IMG/VR virus record: IMGVR_UViG_2939177367_000003
Span: 1 to 41,062 of that record
Direction: 5' to 3' (one strand)
Length of the DNA: 41,062 bases
Origin: a virus
Lineage: Duplodnaviria > Heunggongvirae > Uroviricota > Caudoviricetes
Part shown: positions 35,726 to 41,062 of the stretch, in pieces
Layout: each line of letters starts with the position of its first letter
Numbering within the stretch: position 1 is the stretch's first letter
Notes under the pieces: generated by a model
What the model saw: the letters and a program-made list of their open reading frames with translations, nothing else
The model's database searches: none
Told to the model about the DNA's origin: nothing
Program-made: the position numbers and the translations under genes

Positions 35726-36066
35726 GTATGCTTATGGTGAAAAAGACTATTTATGTTAATCCTGACCGCGGACAAAACAGAAAAGTATCTGATAGAGGTC
35801 TTACATCTCGAGACAGGAGGAGAATAGCGAGATGGGAAAAGAGGATAGCATATGCATTAAAAAACGGTGTAACACCTGGATTTAATGCTATAGATGACGG
35901 TCCTGAATATAAGATTAATGAAGACCCAATGGATAAAGTTGACAAAGCATTAGCAACACCATTTCCTCGCGATGCCGAAAAAATTGAAGATGAAAAATAT
36001 GAGGATGTAATGCACAGAGTTGTTAATCACGCTCACCAACGAAATCCAAATAAAAAATGGTCATAG
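35722..36066 (+). CDS. Hypothetical protein (basic N-terminus, acidic C-terminus)
   Basis: 114 aa ORF translationally coupled to the N-like gene; no recognisable motif. Confidence 0.3.
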   Translation: MSMLMVKKTIYVNPDRGQNRKVSDRGLTSRDRRRIARWEKRIAYALKNGVTPGFNAIDDGPEYKINEDPMDKVDKALATPFPRDAEKIEDEKYEDVMHRVVNHAHQRNPNKKWS

Positions 36067-36089
36067 CCCACTTCGGTGGGTTTTTTATT
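36066..36089 (+). terminator. Rho-independent terminator
   Basis: CCCAC-TTCG-GTGGG hairpin followed by TTTTTTATT. Confidence 0.6.
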
Positions 36090-36200
36090 GTCTGAACAAA
36101 CCTAATTTACTACCGCAAGCCACGCAGTGAAATGGGTGTGACTTGTGTTGGTCGCCAGAAAATGAAATTAGGCAGCAAACCACTGTATGAGGGGTGATCT

Positions 36201-36452
36201 ATGGAATTTCATGAAAGTGCGATTTATGATTTCCGCGCTAACGCAAATTCAGTAAAACCACAGCCAATTGCAGTTCTTTTTAAAACAATGGGAGCGTGGG
36301 CTGTTTTATGCTTCGCCGCTGATGACACTGACGCAAGAATGGCAATAGGCCAAGAGATGGAGATGGACCCGACAAACGATGAATTCATAATTTATGGCGC
36401 TCCATCTAATTACTTACTTGATACCTGCAACATTTACAACAAGGCTTCCTGA
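36201..36452 (+). CDS. Hypothetical small protein (83 aa)
   Basis: ORF with GAGGGG RBS; no recognisable motif. Confidence 0.35.
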   Translation: MEFHESAIYDFRANANSVKPQPIAVLFKTMGAWAVLCFAADDTDARMAIGQEMEMDPTNDEFIIYGAPSNYLLDTCNIYNKAS

Positions 36453-36491
36453 CGGTGGCCTTTATTTTTGGCATAAACAACAGAGGCTAAC

Positions 36492-36788
36492 ATGGAATTT
36501 AAAGGTACTGAAGGTAAGTGGAAAATAATGATGGATGGCGATGAGATTAAAATCATCCAGGCAGACTCACTTGAAAATGGCGCAGGCTGGCGTTCGTATA
36601 TTGCAATCTGTGAGGAAGTTCAATGCATTGAAGATGCCAATCTAATAGCGGCAGCACCTGACCTTCTCGAAGCACTTCAGTTATTACTTAAGCAAACCAA
36701 AAATAGAACAACGACAACATATCCAGAATGGTATGGAGCTGTTAATAAAGGTCTTGCAGCAATCAGAAAAGCTCTTGGGGAAGAATGA
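36492..36788 (+). CDS. Hypothetical small acidic protein (98 aa)
   Basis: ORF with AGAGG RBS; no recognisable motif. Confidence 0.35.
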   Translation: MEFKGTEGKWKIMMDGDEIKIIQADSLENGAGWRSYIAICEEVQCIEDANLIAAAPDLLEALQLLLKQTKNRTTTTYPEWYGAVNKGLAAIRKALGEE

Positions 36789-36947
36789 TGAATAAGAAAT
36801 ACATTGTTGAAGTTATAGAGCGAGGAACAAAAGAAGTAATTAAACATTTCGAATTTGATAATTATAGAAAAGCTGACCGCGTAGAAGAAGGATTGTTGCG
36901 ACAAAGTAATCTCGAAAAATTTGATGTTGTCATGCGATGCGAATAAG
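36786..36947 (+). CDS. Hypothetical small protein (~52 aa)
   Basis: ATGA-overlapped with preceding ORF; not in the supplied ORF track. Confidence 0.25.
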
Positions 36948-37039
36948 CGCCTATAGCAGATTTACGAGTCTGCTATGTGAGCAATGTCGCTCGTAACTAA
37001 ACAGGAGCCGACTTGTTCTGATTATTGGAAATCTTCTTT

Positions 37040-37064
37040 GCCCTCCAATGTGAGGGCCTTTTTA
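37040..37064 (+). terminator. Rho-independent terminator
   Basis: GCCCTC-CAATGT-GAGGGC hairpin followed by CTTTTTA. Confidence 0.5.
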
Positions 37065-37128
37065 TATGCATACCAATAACGCTTCACTCGAGGCGTTTTC
37101 GTTATGCAATCAAACAGAAGGAGCATCC

Positions 37129-37300
37129 TATGCAACAGTTCGCTATTGCAGGGGCGGCATCGGTTCGCCCTTTCAACCCGATTTTATCGGTACAGCATTC
37201 ACGAAAAAACATTTTAACCGGAGCAGACTTTAAACAACCAAGAATGAAAAGTTTGCTCGAAAAGCTTTGGGATATTTTGAAACAACAAGGCCGTCCATGA
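37129..37300 (+). CDS. cIII: CIII-like FtsH inhibitor
   Basis: MQQFAIAGAASVRPFNP...LLEKLWDILKQQGRP parallels lambda CIII (MQYAIAGWPVAGCPSES...LLERITRKLRDGWKRLIDILNQPG); AGGAG RBS at correct spacing. Confidence 0.6.
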
Positions 37301-37467
37301 GCTTTACAGATAACTGGTCAGACGAAGAATTCATTCGTCAGATGAAAGATTTAATCGGTAACGAAGGAGATATGCATGTCACTTGCAACCACAGTGAAGG
37401 AGAGCAAGTTACAGAGACGCATGTACACGCAGCAGGCGTTAATGTATCGCCAGAAGGGAGATCGTGA
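37297..37467 (+). CDS. Small ORF overlapping cIII stop (Kil-like by position only)
   Basis: ATGA overlap with cIII; 56 aa; overlaps the next ORF in another frame. Confidence 0.25.
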   Translation: MSFTDNWSDEEFIRQMKDLIGNEGDMHVTCNHSEGEQVTETHVHAAGVNVSPEGRS

Positions 37468-37546
37468 AGGTGTTCGCGTATTTTTAAATGCGGCAAAGAC
37501 TGAAGTATTAAATCAGCGTTATTTCCTTGGGCCGTGTCCATTCTGA
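37376..37546 (+). CDS. Small ORF immediately upstream of erf (Arf-like by position only)
   Basis: Strong AGGAG RBS 7 nt upstream; 56 aa MSLATTVKESKLQRRMYTQQALMYRQKGDREGVRVFLNAAK... Confidence 0.35.
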   Translation: MSLATTVKESKLQRRMYTQQALMYRQKGDREGVRVFLNAAKTEVLNQRYFLGPCPF

Positions 37547-37556
37547 GATCAAACAT

Positions 37557-38162
37557 ATGAGCAAAGAATTTTATGCAAGGCTGGCAGCCATTCAGGAGAA
37601 TCTGAACGCGCCAAAGAATCAGTACAACTCATTCGGTAAATATAAATACAGAAGCTGCGAAGACATTCTTGAAGGCGTTAAGCCGTTACTGAATGGCCTG
37701 TTTTTATCAATCAGCGATGAAGTTGTGTTGATTGGTGATCGGTATTACGTGAAAGCAACGGCAACTATTACTGATGGCGAAAACAGTCATACAGCAACCG
37801 CTCTTGCACGAGAGGAAGAAAGCAAGAAAGGAATGGATTCTGCACAAGTTACGGGAGCTACAAGCTCTTATGCACGCAAGTATTGCCTCAATGGTTTGTT
37901 CGGCATTGATGATGCGAAAGATGCAGATACCGACGAGCATAAACATCAGCAGAACGCAGCAGCAAAGCAATCAAAACCATCACCTACACCTGAACAGGTT
38001 CTAAAAGCATTCACTGACGCAGCATTGCAGAAAAACACCGTGGAAGAGCTTAAACAGGCGTTCGCCAAAGCGTGGAAGATGCTCGAAGGCACACCGGAGC
38101 AGCACAAAGCGCAGGACGTTTACAACATCAGACGAGACGAATTAGAAGGAGCGGCTGCTTAA
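37557..38162 (+). CDS. erf: Erf-family single-strand annealing recombinase
   Basis: MSKEFYARLAAIQENLNAPKNQYNSFGKYKYRSCEDILEGVKPLL... matches P22 Erf as recalled; start set at internal Met. Confidence 0.8.
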   Translation: MSKEFYARLAAIQENLNAPKNQYNSFGKYKYRSCEDILEGVKPLLNGLFLSISDEVVLIGDRYYVKATATITDGENSHTATALAREEESKKGMDSAQVTGATSSYARKYCLNGLFGIDDAKDADTDEHKHQQNAAAKQSKPSPTPEQVLKAFTDAALQKNTVEELKQAFAKAWKMLEGTPEQHKAQDVYNIRRDELEGAAA

Positions 38163-38545
38163 TGGCACATTCGATTACTGTAAGACTAAACAAACCCGCA
38201 AGAGAGTTTCAGGCCGGGGAAAATATCGGATTCAACATCCGTGCTGGCGTTCAGTATTACGATCGCCAGACAAAAAAGAAAGAATGGACAAACTACAGCG
38301 CCGTTGTATTTGCCAAGCCGGGAGCGCAAGCGGATTACTACCGTAGTGTTCTTGTTGAAGGTGGCATTGTGGAAATTACCGGAGAAAACATCAGGGTTGA
38401 TGTTTATCAGGGGCAAAATGGTCAATCAATCACTCTTGAATTACTGAATGCAAAGATTGGATTTGCAGCTTCAGGAAATGGCCCGCAGCAGCAAAGTAGT
38501 AACCAGCAGAACACTCCTGTATACGACGATTCCATCCCATTCTGA
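38162..38545 (+). CDS. ssb: Single-stranded DNA-binding protein (short phage SSB)
   Basis: OB-fold-like core and SSB hallmark C-terminal acidic tail ...YDDSIPF; AGGAG RBS; TAATG overlap with erf. Confidence 0.7.
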   Translation: MAHSITVRLNKPAREFQAGENIGFNIRAGVQYYDRQTKKKEWTNYSAVVFAKPGAQADYYRSVLVEGGIVEITGENIRVDVYQGQNGQSITLELLNAKIGFAASGNGPQQQSSNQQNTPVYDDSIPF

Positions 38546-38568
38546 TTTAGAAAAATAAGGATTTAATT

Positions 38569-38862
38569 ATGCCAGCGCCTCTGTATGGTGCGGACGACGC
38601 GCGCCGCTGTTCCGGCAATTCCGTATCGGAGGTGCTGGATAAATTCAGAAAAAACTACGATCGAATAATGTCTCTACCGCAGGAAACGAAAGAGGAAAAG
38701 GAATTTCGCCACTGTATATGGCTTGCAGAGAAAGAAGAACGCGAGCGAATTTACCAGACATCAATCCGACCATTCCGCAAAGCTACATATACCCACTTCC
38801 ATGAAATTGACCCGCGCCTGCGTAATTACCGCTCACGCTATGGCGCTATCAGTAATGACTGA
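38569..38862 (+). CDS. Hypothetical protein (97 aa)
   Basis: ORF with TAAGGA RBS; no recognisable motif. Confidence 0.3.
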
Positions 38863-38872
38863 GGAATTTACC

Positions 38873-39037
38873 ATGAGAGGTCTTGCATACAATCCCGGCA
38901 TTCTTCCGGCAGAAATGATTATTCGCCAACGCGTAAAGCCAATGCCATCGAGAGAGGAATTGCTTAAGAGAAATTCTTTTCCGTCAGTAAATCAAAACAA
39001 ATATCTGAATGCGATGTGGCGGAGTGGGAAGAAATGA
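38873..39037 (+). CDS. Hypothetical small protein (54 aa)
   Basis: Start set at first Met after the upstream gene's stop; ATGA overlap with the next gene. Confidence 0.25.
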
Positions 39038-39540
39038 AACAAATGTCACTAATTGAGATGGATGGATTTCTGAAAGGTAAATGCATCCCACGAGATTTAA
39101 AGGTTAACGAAACAAACGCTGAATATCTGGTGCGTAAATTTGCTGAGTTTGAATCAAAACTGGAAACGGCGTTGCGGGAGTGTCGTTCCGCTGGAATCAC
39201 GATTGATAACCTTGAAGCCAAGTGTGCGGCGCTGGCAGCAGAGAATGCGGGGATGAAGAAGTTCTGCAAAGACGCTGCATTCGATGCCGATTACGAAGCA
39301 GAGCTAGGTATGGAGCGTGGTGGATTCAGTGATGCGCTTAACGAAATCAAAACCCCAGCCACCGATGCTTTCCTGGCTGAAGTACGGGCGCGGGGGGTAG
39401 AGATGTACGCAGATAACCTCGACAACGGAGCAGACGACGCAGAACGAGGTGGTTTTGATTATGCCGTTAAGTTTCTACGCAGTGAAGCGTCTAGTGTACG
39501 TTTGTTCGCCGACCTACTTCGCAAAGTAGGCAAGCAGTGA
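39034..39540 (+). CDS. Hypothetical acidic protein (~168 aa)
   Basis: ORF with GGAG RBS; coiled-coil-like central region; no recognisable catalytic motif. Confidence 0.3.
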
Positions 39541-39737
39541 ACAAGATTGACTATCAGGCACTGCGTGAGATAGCAAAGCACCAGAGACTTACAGAAGAAT
39601 CAGCGAGCTACGCAAGGACTAACGCCTCACACTCGATGAGGCATTTTCATTTATCAAGATATCTAGACCTACCATCGCCGCATCAATGCGGTTTTTTATT
39701 GCCTGATTTGCAGGTTCGATTCCCTATTCGGAGATAG
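39537..39737 (+). CDS. Hypothetical small protein (66 aa, GTG start)
   Basis: GTGA-coupled to upstream ORF; its 3' end overlaps the tRNA-derived fragment at 39706-39723. Confidence 0.2.
   Translation: MNKIDYQALREIAKHQRLTEESASYARTNASHSMRHFHLSRYLDLPSPHQCGFLLPDLQVRFPIRR
39706..39723 (+). repeat. tRNA-derived fragment (T-arm-like ATTTGCAGGTTCGATTCC)
   Basis: GCAGG-TTCGATT-CC has the form of a tRNA T-stem/T-loop; it is the 5' neighbour expected for the attR core at 40017-40031. Confidence 0.4.
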
Positions 39738-39742
39738 CACTC

Positions 39743-39943
39743 ATGCAACACGAACTACAACCTGATTCACTGGTTGATTTGAAATTCATCATGGCCGATA
39801 CTGGCTTCGGTAAAACCTTCATTTATGACCGGATTAAGTCCGGCGACCTGCCTAAAGCCAAAGTTATCCACGGGCGAGCAAGATGGTTATATCGTGACCA
39901 TTGTGAATTCAAAAATAAGCTCTTAAGCCGCGCCAATGGGTAA
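39743..39943 (+). CDS. torI: TorI-type excisionase / recombination directionality factor
   Basis: 66-aa translation MQHELQPDSLVDLKFIMADTGFGKTFIYDRIKSGDLPKAKVIHGRARWLYRDHCEFKNKLLSRANG matches E. coli TorI as recalled. Confidence 0.85.
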   Translation: MQHELQPDSLVDLKFIMADTGFGKTFIYDRIKSGDLPKAKVIHGRARWLYRDHCEFKNKLLSRANG

Positions 39944-40016
39944 AATAGCGGGTAAAATATTTCTCACATCTAAAAAACACCATTCCAATCAATCCCCTGC
40001 CGCTTCAAGTAGATGT

Positions 40017-40031
40017 CTGCAGGGGACACCA
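40017..40031 (+). repeat. attR core: 3' end of a tRNA-Arg-like gene (CTGCAGGGGACACCA)
   Basis: Reads as T-stem 3' strand, acceptor 3' strand, discriminator and CCA; lies between torI and dsdC; embedded in dyad CCCCTGC...GCAGGGG. Confidence 0.6.
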
Positions 40032-40126
40032 TCCTTGTGTTTATCCCTAAAACCACATAAAAACCGTAAATTAAATTCGAACTAGCAGGCCGAATAAGGC
40101 ACACCAGGAACTCGTGGTTTTATTCA

Positions 40127-41062
40127 TTATGAAGTGGTTTTTACCTGTTCTCTTAGCCAGGTAATAAACGCTTCAATTTTTGGCCACTGCCTGCCCGGTA
40201 ATGTGGTGATGTAATAATGCTGATGGCATTTCACCGTCATATCGCCAAACGGCGCGACGAGCTCACCACTGGCAAGCCTTTTTTGTACCAGGCGTTTTCT
40301 TCCCATCGCCACCCCAATATGATTCATCGCGGCAATAACAGCTAAATCAGAACGATCAAAGCCAATTCCAGAAGATGTCGGCAAATTAACCGCATAATGT
40401 TGCGCCCAACTATGCCATTCATCCGTACCGGAGTCGTTGCTCCATGCCTGTCTGTCATGGAGCAACGTACAGTGACACAGGTTAATTACCGTGTTGGTTA
40501 AAGCATGTCTTTGAGCGTATTCCGGGCTACATACTGGCAGGATTTCTTCATCCATCAGAAAGTGATGAGTGAGTTGCGCTGACGGCGCATCATCAAAGTA
40601 GATCGCCAAATCGATTCCGGCACGTTGCAGATTGACGTTGTCATTACCAGTGAGCACGGTGAGCGAAATAGACGGATACCGGCGTGTAAAGTCACCTAAT
40701 GCGGGCACCAACCAGCATTGGGCGATAGAGGGCCGGGAATACAGAGTTAACGTTCCCGATAACTCCTGATTTTTGATATCAAGAATTTCCTGGTTCAGGG
40801 TATCCAGCGACGATTTTAGCGCCCAATAAACACGTTTCCCCTCGTGCGTTAATTCCACTTTGCGATGGGAACGAACAAACAACTGAATGCCCAATTCTTC
40901 TTCCAGCTGATTGATACGGTGACTTACCGCACTGGGGCTCAGCGACAATTCCTCTGCCGCCAGGGCGAAGGACTGATGCCTGGCAGCCACTTCAAAAGTA
41001 TGCATTTTTGATAATTGCCAGCCGTTAAGCAGCCGATTTCTTATTTCACGAAGGGGTTCCAT
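40127..41062 (-). CDS. dsdC: LysR-family transcriptional regulator DsdC (D-serine deaminase activator); chromosomal flank
   Basis: Full 311-aa translation MEPLREIRNRLLNGWQLSKMHTFEVAARHQSFALAAEELSLSPSAVSHRINQLEEELGIQLF... recognised as DsdC; start codon is the last three bases of the window. Confidence 0.85.
   Translation of the reverse strand: MEPLREIRNRLLNGWQLSKMHTFEVAARHQSFALAAEELSLSPSAVSHRINQLEEELGIQLFVRSHRKVELTHEGKRVYWALKSSLDTLNQEILDIKNQELSGTLTLYSRPSIAQCWLVPALGDFTRRYPSISLTVLTGNDNVNLQRAGIDLAIYFDDAPSAQLTHHFLMDEEILPVCSPEYAQRHALTNTVINLCHCTLLHDRQAWSNDSGTDEWHSWAQHYAVNLPTSSGIGFDRSDLAVIAAMNHIGVAMGRKRLVQKRLASGELVAPFGDMTVKCHQHYYITTLPGRQWPKIEAFITWLREQVKTTS

Follow-up and report, generated by a model that had tools for sequence, protein, structure and literature searches.

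The four small open reading frames (ORFs) between an ssb-like gene and torI in the window, a 41,062-nt stretch of viral DNA (IMG/VR record IMGVR_UViG_2939177367_000003), very probably constitute a standard HK97/P22-type distal PL segment, in which ORF1 is abc2, ORF2 and ORF3 are accessory genes and ORF4 is a deletion scar. The content of this region is already known: a near-copy of the well-studied P22 gene abc2, which serves to hijack RecBCD, two genes widespread amongst lambdoid phages and the leftover of a deletion. The identities of the genes, their synteny, the scar and the conservation of two hairpins are demonstrated here. The original prediction had described four unknown genes with no recognisable motifs. 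However, ORF1 specifies a characterised protein with a solved structure, ORF2 belongs to the Pfam family DUF2737, ORF3 belongs to phrog_614 and ORF4 is a scar; the absence of motifs was wrongly stated for ORF1 and ORF2, both of which score far above the Pfam gathering threshold. NCBIfam and PADLOC searches gave no match for any of the four ORFs.

Gene order and operon context

The ORF list of the window confirmed the positions, the lengths (97, 54, ~168 and 66 aa) and the tight packing of the four plus-strand ORFs, as first described. ORF1 starts 23 nt behind the ssb-like gene and ORF2 follows ORF1 after 10 nt; ORF2 and ORF3 overlap by ATGA, ORF3 and ORF4 by GTGA, and torI begins 5 nt past the end of ORF4. 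Further upstream, erf (37557..38162, plus strand) encodes the Erf-type single-strand annealing protein of the Rec module (Pfam PF04404, E 2e-44; phrog_155), at the position that erf takes in HK97 and P22. It is followed by a gene for an SSB-type protein (38162..38545, plus strand), which matches phrog_44 (single-strand DNA-binding protein; E 3e-27) and had no match in the Pfam search. This gene sits at the position of HK97 gp40, the product of which was named “SSB-1b” from its predicted fold (PMC12315714).

The gene order in the window is that of HK97: erf, gp40 (ssb-like), abc2, gp38, gp37, terminator, xis. In the close relative mEp043, the region is preceded on the same strand by cI, PL, N, cIII, kil, erf and the gp40-like gene. 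Both observations support the earlier placement at the distal end of the PL operon, and, as judged from gene content and order, we assign the region to the distal part of an HK97/P22-type lambdoid early-left (PL) operon. The prophage is integrated at argW, with dsdC (40127-41062, minus strand) adjoining after the attR core, CTGCAGGGGACACCAT (40017..40032, plus strand), which was read directly from the sequence; the 16-nt att core is as given for KplE1 (PMC2951348). Rfam returned nothing at E <= 1 across 36000-41062.

ORF1, ORF2 and ORF3 are conserved in the isolated phages P22, HK97, HK620 and mEpX2, as well as in thousands of E. coli genomes. Because of this conservation, and of the purifying selection on ORF1 and ORF2 (dN/dS values below), these three are more than chance ORFs. 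The original prediction had itself considered that the ORFs could be non-conserved noise, which is what was found for ORF4.

ORF1 is abc2

ORF1 (38569..38862, plus strand; 97 aa, ATG start) matches Anti-RecBCD_p2 (PF11043) over positions 1-97 of 97 (E 3.2e-63; 210.4 bits versus a cut-off of 25), phrog_656 (E 7e-54) and PDB entries 8b1t/8b1u, “Anti-RecBCD protein 2” (E 3e-57). Its product is identical to P22 Abc2 at 90 of 97 residues (93%) in a gap-free alignment, with a dN/dS of 0.11 between the two genes (purifying selection). The structure of the P22 Abc2-RecBCD complex has been solved (8b1t, 8b1u), and residues 6-52 (N-terminal helices) are the part of Abc2 modelled on RecC (PMC9836394); across these residues, the window protein carries only 2 substitutions compared to P22 Abc2, and P68 is also kept. 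The 97-aa protein had been called Abc-like from its position, rightly so, and homology, not just position, now assigns it as Abc2 (anti-RecBCD protein 2).

Erf (PF04404) is encoded two genes upstream of abc2. The window ORF list includes no other plus-strand ORF of more than 114 aa between 36000 and erf, and therefore there is no room for an exonuclease gene there. The window Abc2 thus occurs in a module with a single-strand annealing protein and without a phage exonuclease, and the HK97 synteny is the same. Abc1 is not present in the window and was found in only two related IMG/VR loci.

Abc2 makes RecBCD unresponsive to Chi without blocking the enzyme (PMC9836394, PMC12315714), and it is thought to pass the single-stranded DNA product of RecBCD to the annealing protein of the phage instead of RecA. 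In the window, the receiving protein would be Erf, with the SSB-like protein encoded next to it as a probable helper. PpiB, a prolyl isomerase of the host, engages Abc2 at Pro68 (PMC9836394), a residue conserved in the window copy. For the window protein, we infer this mechanism from the literature on Abc2 (PMC9836394, PMC12315714), and the exact recombination phenotype may differ from that of P22 because the window is without Abc1.

The prophage has a complete HK97-type recombination module of Erf, SSB-like protein and Abc2. From this, phage recombination upon induction is predicted to be Chi-independent and RecBCD-dependent, and the prophage would probably be sensitive to defence systems that detect interference with RecBCD.

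ORF2 and ORF3 are conserved accessory genes

ORF2 (38873..39037, plus strand; 54 aa, ATG start) encodes a DUF2737 protein, homologous to P22 orf56, HK97 gp38 and HK620 HkaI. It matches PF10930 over positions 1-52 of 53 (E 2.6e-31; 107.7 bits versus a cut-off of 25) and phrog_1117 (E 4e-38), is 75% identical to P22 orf56 and evolves under purifying selection (dN/dS of 0.28 versus HK97 gp38). We compared 156 IMG/VR loci, which are the closest relatives: Abc2 is encoded upstream of DUF2737 in 149 of them, and in 143 the two genes are separated by exactly 10 nt, across Abc2 identities of about 60% to 100%. The literature yielded one paper that mentions DUF2737, as an annotation label only, and no publication on the function of HK97 gp37 or gp38.

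ORF3 (39034..39540, plus strand; 168 aa, ATG start) specifies a helical mosaic protein resembling HK97 gp37 and HK620 HkaH, which are encoded at the same position behind DUF2737. It matches phrog_614 (E 3.3e-58), gave no match in Pfam, NCBIfam or PADLOC, and is 98% identical to mEpX2_029. It has at least 7802 relatives, every one of them named hypothetical, and is very common in E. coli prophages; the relatives form 1106 clusters at 50% identity and match different segments of the query. An AlphaFold2 (AF2) model built from a shallow alignment of 13 sequences was unusable (pLDDT 43), and an alignment of 26 cluster representatives yielded an all-helical model with a pLDDT of 84. Using the latter, Foldseek searches against PDB and BFVD gave no fold match at E <= 1e-3 and returned generic helical hairpins only (EsxB, ROP, rubrerythrin). 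A distant relationship of ORF3 with Ead/Ea22 was considered and rejected: there was no PF13935 hit, and hhalign against the Ead alignment gave a probability of 0.3%.

ORF2 and ORF3 are real, conserved and co-transcribed accessory genes, located where the recombination module meets the variable “ea” region. As to their roles, we can only speculate that they may be non-essential host-interaction proteins working via protein binding, the ORF2 product being a small and basic peptide and that of ORF3 a long coiled coil combined with a helical hairpin.

More specific roles can be weighed against the distribution and the architecture of the two families. It appears quite unlikely that DUF2737, and possibly ORF3, are unrecognised cofactors of the Abc2/Erf recombination module that aid the re-programming of RecBCD, like Abc1/Arf in P22. 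The adjacency of abc2 and DUF2737 in P22, HK97, HK620, mEpX2 and the window despite differing flanking genes, the 10-nt gap kept in 143 of the 156 loci over the whole range of Abc2 identities, and the ATGA overlap between ORF2 and ORF3 would all be consistent with such a partnership. However, DUF2737 and an ORF3-like gene also occur behind RecT/Mu-Gam-like modules without abc2, in CB7286 and in six of the seven IMG/VR loci devoid of abc2, which weakens the case for DUF2737 as an obligate partner of Abc2. Moreover, the sampled loci being the closest relatives, the adjacency may only mean that a single block of DNA was inherited from a common ancestor; one prophage keeps abc2 with an internal stop in DUF2737, and DUF2737 is not amongst the Rec genes listed by a 2025 survey of lambdoid Rec modules.

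An anti-defence (counter-immunity) role of ORF2 and ORF3, with the gp37-like scaffold carrying an enzymatic anti-defence domain in some phages, is doubtful, albeit the neighbouring anti-RecBCD gene would fit. In the gp37-like representative P0267, the ORF3 N-module and the C-terminal ...FAxQLRKG module enclose an Acb1 (anti-CBASS) domain (Pfam E 1e-7; 32 bits versus a cut-off of 27) with two HxT motifs (HLT and HVT), and further representatives include HNH_3, DUF551 or dATP/dGTP pyrophosphohydrolase domains. Nevertheless, any Pfam domain is present in only nine of 150 gp37-like representatives, and ORF3 of the window has only about 30 variable residues at the would-be cargo site. Neither ORF2 nor ORF3 has a PADLOC match, the only Pfam match for ORF2 is DUF2737 and ORF3 has none. 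Mosaic recombination at gene borders would, furthermore, be expected to produce common end modules, which need not imply a shared function. A broader version is, in our opinion, unlikely: the gp37-like family would be a modular helical scaffold (conserved N-module, coiled coil, C-terminal helical hairpin), the variable centre of which is loaded with differing host-interaction or anti-defence cargo, such as the Acb1-like 2H phosphoesterase of one representative and the HNH or DUF551 domains of others, and ORF3, perhaps also DUF2737, would be counter-defence or host-takeover factors travelling with the anti-RecBCD gene.

Beyond their standing as accessory genes, the window adds nothing specific on the function of DUF2737 and the gp37-like protein; its value lies mainly in the correct annotation. 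Amongst the uncharacterised genes of lambdoid prophages in E. coli, these two rank with the commonest, which would make a functional assignment useful.

ORF4 is a deletion scar

ORF4 (39537..39737, plus strand; 66 aa, GTG start) is an open frame over a deletion scar and a terminator region and not a gene. Its first 11 codons (39537..39569, plus strand) are the remnant start of an ead/Ea22-like gene, near-identical to the start of the full gene in strain 01_3327 (MSKIDYQALRE) in 30 of 33 nt and 10 of 11 residues. In a frame different from that of ORF4, the sequence 39574..39622 (plus strand) constitutes the last 15 codons and the TAA (39620-39622) of a gene for a 114-aa protein (phrog_1229; E 3e-51): the frame-2 translation, KAPETYRRISELRKD*, and the C-terminal end of the 114-aa proteins from ETEC1720 and O157 are identical. 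IMG/VR relatives are homologous to the window up to 39567-39569 and again from 39574 onwards, with 1161-2378 bp (1.2-2.4 kb) between the positions that correspond to 39569 and 39574.

The ORF4 reading frame is not conserved amongst relatives that share the sequence: all 66 codons are open in the window, LR-64-1 and CB7286, but in HK97, which shares the junction, a 2-nt insertion ends the frame at 34 aa, and the internal spacer differs by +2, +4 and +14 nt amongst relatives. ORF4 is a chimera of two unrelated gene fragments in different frames. Its only Pfam match, Ead_Ea22 (PF13935; residues 3-28), scores 18.2 bits, below the cut-off of 27, and beyond the first 28 residues there was no family match in Pfam, PHROG, NCBIfam or PADLOC. 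Neither HK97 nor the PGAP-annotated genomes LR-64-1 and CB7286, all with the same junction, list it as a CDS, and the mEpX2 records include three CDS only under the matching stretch.

It is extremely unlikely that ORF4 is a genuine 66-aa protein gene, the last of the operon before torI, even though its start overlaps the ORF3 stop, 66 codons are open (also in LR-64-1 and CB7286) and K-12 has a comparably placed annotated ORF, ypdJ. The fusion of an 11-codon gene start with an out-of-frame gene end speaks against a gene, as do the frame that stops after 34 codons behind the junction shared with HK97, the lack of annotation in HK97 and the PGAP genomes, the lack of a family match past residue 28 and the variable spacer; moreover, ORF4 spans two terminator-like hairpins and the torI leader. 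In our reading, a deletion of 1.2-2.4 kb removed the ead/Ea22-like gene, the other ea genes and most of the gene for the 114-aa protein. The scar kept the stop codon of the latter, the conserved hairpin and the intrinsic-terminator-like hairpin ahead of the torI leader. ORF4 yields no functional protein, but a junk peptide could be translated, since the native ead start context (GTGA overlap) is retained and the 66-codon frame is open. The case of ORF4 calls for caution: small, tightly “coupled” ORFs at the borders of modules can turn out to be the scars of deletions.

Hairpins, torI leader and att region

A terminator scan identified two hairpins on the plus strand. Hairpin 1 (GCCTCA-CACTCGA-TGAGGC; 39624..39642) is a highly conserved non-coding element, the stem of which is invariant in K-12, HK97, LR-64-1, CB7286, ETEC1720, O157 and the IMG/VR loci, where it occurs behind different genes; the spacer from the TAA to hairpin 1 is 1, 3, 5 or 15 nt in relatives. 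Hairpin 2 with its T-run (39677..39698) is intrinsic-terminator-like, located just upstream of the torI leader and labelled “terminator, putative” in HK97. It exists in two alleles, GCCGCAT-CA-ATGCGG and GCCGCC-TGAT-GGCGG, each with a G+C-rich stem and a T-run. Both hairpins are predicted terminators; the fold z-score across 39610-39745 is only -1.2.

The torI leader (39698..39736, plus strand) includes TTGC-N5-TTGC at 39699-39711; on the identical sequence of HK620, the depositors predicted a “promoter, phage integration” and a cII-binding site. torI itself (39743..39943, plus strand), annotated as such in relatives, encodes the excisionase and TorR inhibitor and is 100% identical to K-12 TorI. 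Within the leader, 16 nt (39708..39723, plus strand; TTGCAGGTTCGATTCC) match exactly a fragment of the T-arm of the argW tRNA, one that directly precedes the att core in argW. All torI loci examined keep this fragment upstream of the gene. A tRNA or known RNA in the 3′ half of ORF4 (GGTTCGATTCC) was rejected, as ARAGORN found no tRNA and Rfam nothing at E <= 1.

Frame 2 of 39623-39703 (RLTLDEAFSFIKISRPTI...) specifies a 27-aa translation in the window that does not match the excisionase profiles (TIGR01764/HTH_17). The K-12 frame-2 translation, with its stop replaced by hand, scores 17.8 bits against the excisionase cut-off of 28.8 (E 0.003); ypdJ has been described as an excisionase remnant. 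Because the sole support is a sub-threshold score on a hand-edited K-12 sequence, there is only a hint that 39623-39703 is an excisionase remnant.

Comparison with known systems

Compared to Ead/Ea22-like proteins (PF13935), ORF4 has the start of such a gene in its first 11 codons, the remainder being deleted. The comparison with K-12 CPS-53 suggested earlier yielded little: yfdP, yfdQ, yfdR and yfdT are unrelated to the four ORFs, and likeness is restricted to the N-module of ORF3, shared with YfdS (N-terminal 65 aa, 55% identity), and to a 3′ non-coding block at ypdJ. The block from hairpin 1 to torI (39624-39742 in the window) is shared with CPS-53/KplE1, where the 3′ end of ypdJ overlies hairpin 1; ypdJ begins inside yfdT, in a frame unlike that of ORF4, and hairpin 2 is degenerate in K-12.

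The phrog_614 members HK97 gp37, HK620 HkaH and mEpX2_029 are mosaic proteins with a variable central segment; HK97 gp37 has its N-terminal 75 aa and C-terminal 60 aa in common with ORF3. P22 orf56, HK97 gp38 and HK620 HkaI are of the same size as ORF2 and, like it, located 10 nt downstream of abc2, and nothing notable sets the window ORF2 apart from them. P22 Abc2 has 97 aa, as in the window, and also belongs to a Rec module with Erf and without exonuclease; it differs by seven substitutions (P11A, L32R, A65S, K76H, I78H, D86N and N97D). In P22, abc1 is located directly upstream of abc2, whereas the window has the HK97 gp40-type SSB-like gene in that place.

Prophage setting and layout of the reading frames

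The window is a lambdoid prophage of about 40 kb at the argW/dsdC (KplE1/CPS-53) site, since its first base is that of the intS ATG, it ends in dsdC (40127-41062, − strand), and the 16-nt KplE1 att core (sequence from PMC2951348) can be read as attR at 40017-40032 (CTGCAGGGGACACCAT). Between the ssb-like gene and torI, the ORF list and the sequence give four reading frames on the + strand: ORF1 (38569-38862; 97 aa), ORF2 (38873-39037; 54 aa), ORF3 (39034-39540; 168 aa) and ORF4 (39537-39737; 66 aa, with a GTG start). ORF1 and ORF2 are separated by 10 nt, ORF2 and ORF3 overlap by ATGA and ORF3 and ORF4 by GTGA, and torI starts 5 nt after the end of ORF4. This geometry agrees with the original prediction of four tightly packed ORFs, which had also placed them correctly in the distal PL operon: the region upstream of them aligns with that of the relative mEp043, where cI, PL, N, cIII, kil and erf are joined by a gp40-like gene, all on the same strand. 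What had been described as four unknown genes is, however, part of a well-known, already annotated lambdoid module; the ORFs are real, but one corresponds to a characterised protein (Abc2), two fall into catalogued families and one is spurious.

The gene at 38162-38545, originally named ssb, has no Pfam match, and PHROG 44 and its synteny with HK97 gp40 are all that identifies it; HK97 gp40 was named “SSB-1b” on predicted-fold grounds in a 2025 survey (PMC12315714). A 56-aa ORF at 37376-37546, ending 10 nt before erf, occupies the position of HK97 gp42 and P22 arf and equals mEp043 gp41 in length and spacing.

ORF1 and ORF2: Abc2 and a DUF2737 protein

ORF1 encodes, by homology, Abc2. Pfam PF11043 (Anti-RecBCD_p2) is matched at full length, 97/97 positions (E 3e-63); the protein also matches phrog_656 (“abc2 anti-RecBCD”) and the chain “Anti-RecBCD protein 2” in PDB entries 8b1t and 8b1u, and is identical to P22 Abc2 at 90 of the 97 residues without gaps (dN/dS = 0.11). 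The Abc-like assignment, made from position, was thus right and has homology behind it. Abc2 is proposed to hijack RecBCD so that its single-stranded DNA product goes to the phage Erf instead of RecA, and the host PpiB engages Abc2 at P68 (PMC9836394). ORF1 retains P68 and lies two genes downstream of erf; of its differences from P22 Abc2, only two fall within residues 6-52, the stretch modelled on RecC. Between 36000 and erf, the ORF list shows no further + strand ORF of more than 114 aa, which fits the Abc2 phages, described as lacking an exonuclease of their own (PMC9836394).

ORF2 is identified by homology as a DUF2737 family protein (PF10930, E 3e-31; also phrog_1117); it is 75% identical to P22 orf56, and its counterparts are HK97 gp38 (dN/dS = 0.28) and HK620 HkaI. 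With the ORF2 protein and P22 orf56 as queries, we collected 160 IMG/VR loci, a biased sample because these are the closest relatives. Among the 156 with enough upstream sequence, abc2 precedes DUF2737 in 149, at a distance of exactly 10 nt in 143. DUF2737 follows RecT/Mu-Gam-like modules in six of the seven abc2-less IMG/VR loci and in E. coli CB7286, also without abc2, while one prophage carries an internal stop in DUF2737 and retains abc2. The one paper found to name DUF2737 does so as an annotation label.

ORF3: a mosaic family

ORF3 is assigned, on sequence grounds, to the HK97 gp37/HK620 HkaH family. Of the profile and structure searches advised in the original prediction, the profile searches placed ORF1 and ORF2 in Pfam families and ORF3 in phrog_614 (E 3e-58); ORF3 had no Pfam, NCBIfam or PADLOC match, and its AF2 model gave nothing at E ≤ 1e-3 with Foldseek against PDB and BFVD. 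That model (pLDDT 84, from a 26-sequence alignment) contains helices only: residues 28-83 form one long helix, and residues 108-167 a helical hairpin. At least 7802 relatives, including mEpX2_029 (98% identity), are all named “hypothetical”. An exhaustive HMMER search yielded 1106 clusters at 50% identity, which match separate query segments (1-42, 1-80, 60-130 and 104-168); the family is therefore mosaic. The alignments run from a conserved N-module through a variable-length coiled-coil segment, a variable centre and a 17-residue motif to a C-terminal FAxQLRKG helix.

The suggested comparison with K-12 yfdP-yfdT held in part: the N-terminal 65 residues of ORF3 (39034-39230) are 55% identical to the N-terminus of YfdS (L003:5512-5874, the K-12 locus), but the two proteins are unrelated beyond, so that a mosaic joint lies inside a gene, and yfdP, yfdQ, yfdR and yfdT are unrelated to the four ORFs. 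Kinship of ORF3 with Ead/Ea22 was considered and rejected, as hhalign shows no relation.

Pfam domains occur in 9 of 150 family representatives: Ead_Ea22 in three, DUF551 in two, and HNH_3, dATP/dGTP pyrophosphohydrolase, Acb1 and DivIC in one each. In the cluster representative P0267, an Acb1-like (anti-CBASS) domain of the 2H-phosphoesterase type, bearing two HxT motifs, lies between ORF3-type N- and C-modules, which hints that the gp37-like slot can carry counter-defence cargo, saying nothing direct on ORF3 itself.

ORF4: a deletion scar

ORF4, originally counted as a fourth gene, is a deletion scar: a chimera of an ead start and the out-of-frame end of a 114-aa gene. Over the first 33 nt it matches the start of the full-length ead/Ea22-like gene of strain 01_3327 (beginning MSKIDYQALRE) at 30/33 nt and 10/11 residues, which explains the below-threshold Ead_Ea22 match of residues 3-28. 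From 39574 follows the 3′ end of the 114-aa gene (phrog_1229), present in ETEC1720, O157:H7 and others; it reads KAPETYRRISELRKD* in another frame than ORF4, with its native TAA at 39620-39622. In IMG/VR relatives (L012, L015, L053, L054 and L088), homology to the window ends at 39569 and restarts at 39574 after 1161-2378 bp. The identical junction occurs in HK97, mEpX2 and the E. coli genomes LR-64-1 and CB7286; no CDS is annotated for it in HK97, LR-64-1 or CB7286, and in HK97 a 2-nt insertion closes the frame at 34 aa. The spacer from the TAA to the next hairpin is 1, 3, 5 or 15 nt across relatives, as expected of non-coding DNA.

Two terminator-like hairpins lie in ORF4. Hairpin 1 (39624-39642) keeps an invariant stem behind three or more different genes. 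Hairpin 2 (39677-39692), the same element as the “putative terminator” annotated in HK97, exists as GCCGCAT-CA-ATGCGG or GCCGCC-TGAT-GGCGG, with a T-run behind either allele. Beyond the TAA that closes the truncated 114-aa gene, frame 2 at 39623-39703 reads RLTLDEAFSFIKISRPTIAAS... and corresponds to the C-terminus of K-12 ypdJ (SLTLDEACQFLKIS*); the predicted peptide resembles the N-terminus of HTH-type excisionases, with a sub-threshold profile score obtained on a hand-edited K-12 sequence. Hairpin 1, invariant across relatives, sits within this stretch.

The final ~40 nt of ORF4 form the torI leader (39698-39736). In HK620, the identical sequence before the torI homologue is annotated as a predicted cII-activated “phage integration” promoter, in which TTGCCTGATTTGC (TTGC-N5-TTGC; 39699-39711) is the predicted cII-binding site. 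Lambda-type cII sites have an N6 spacer, so the function of this N5 site is uncertain.

An argW fragment upstream of torI

The 16 nt at 39708-39723 (TTGCAGGTTCGATTCC), just upstream of torI, repeat the argW T-arm exactly; the calculated chance expectation for such a match in the window is ~1e-3. In argW these bases stand immediately 5′ of the 16-nt KplE1 att core, whereas here the core follows 293 nt downstream, past torI, so that the torI cassette appears to split the 3′ third of argW. The fragment is kept upstream of torI in K-12, HK620 and every torI locus examined; HK97 lacks it, and HK97 homology stops just before it. Possibly, an ancestral, longer argW identity block was later split by the torI cassette.

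In E. coli 01_3327 (L008) and ETEC1720 (L009), another tyrosine integrase gene is found ~270 bp after torI in place of dsdC, which suggests that a second element integrated in tandem, using the same att core.

Proposed working of the module

Upon induction or infection, N-antiterminated transcription from PL would express erf, the SSB-like gene, abc2, ORF2 and ORF3. Under Abc2, host RecBCD would become blind to Chi and carry out resection for Erf-mediated recombination, and ORF2 and ORF3 may act as co-translated accessory proteins. Without N, transcription probably ends at the hairpins; with N, it would continue into torI. The local order of erf, gp40-like gene, abc2, gp38-like gene, gp37-like gene, terminator and xis is exactly that of HK97.
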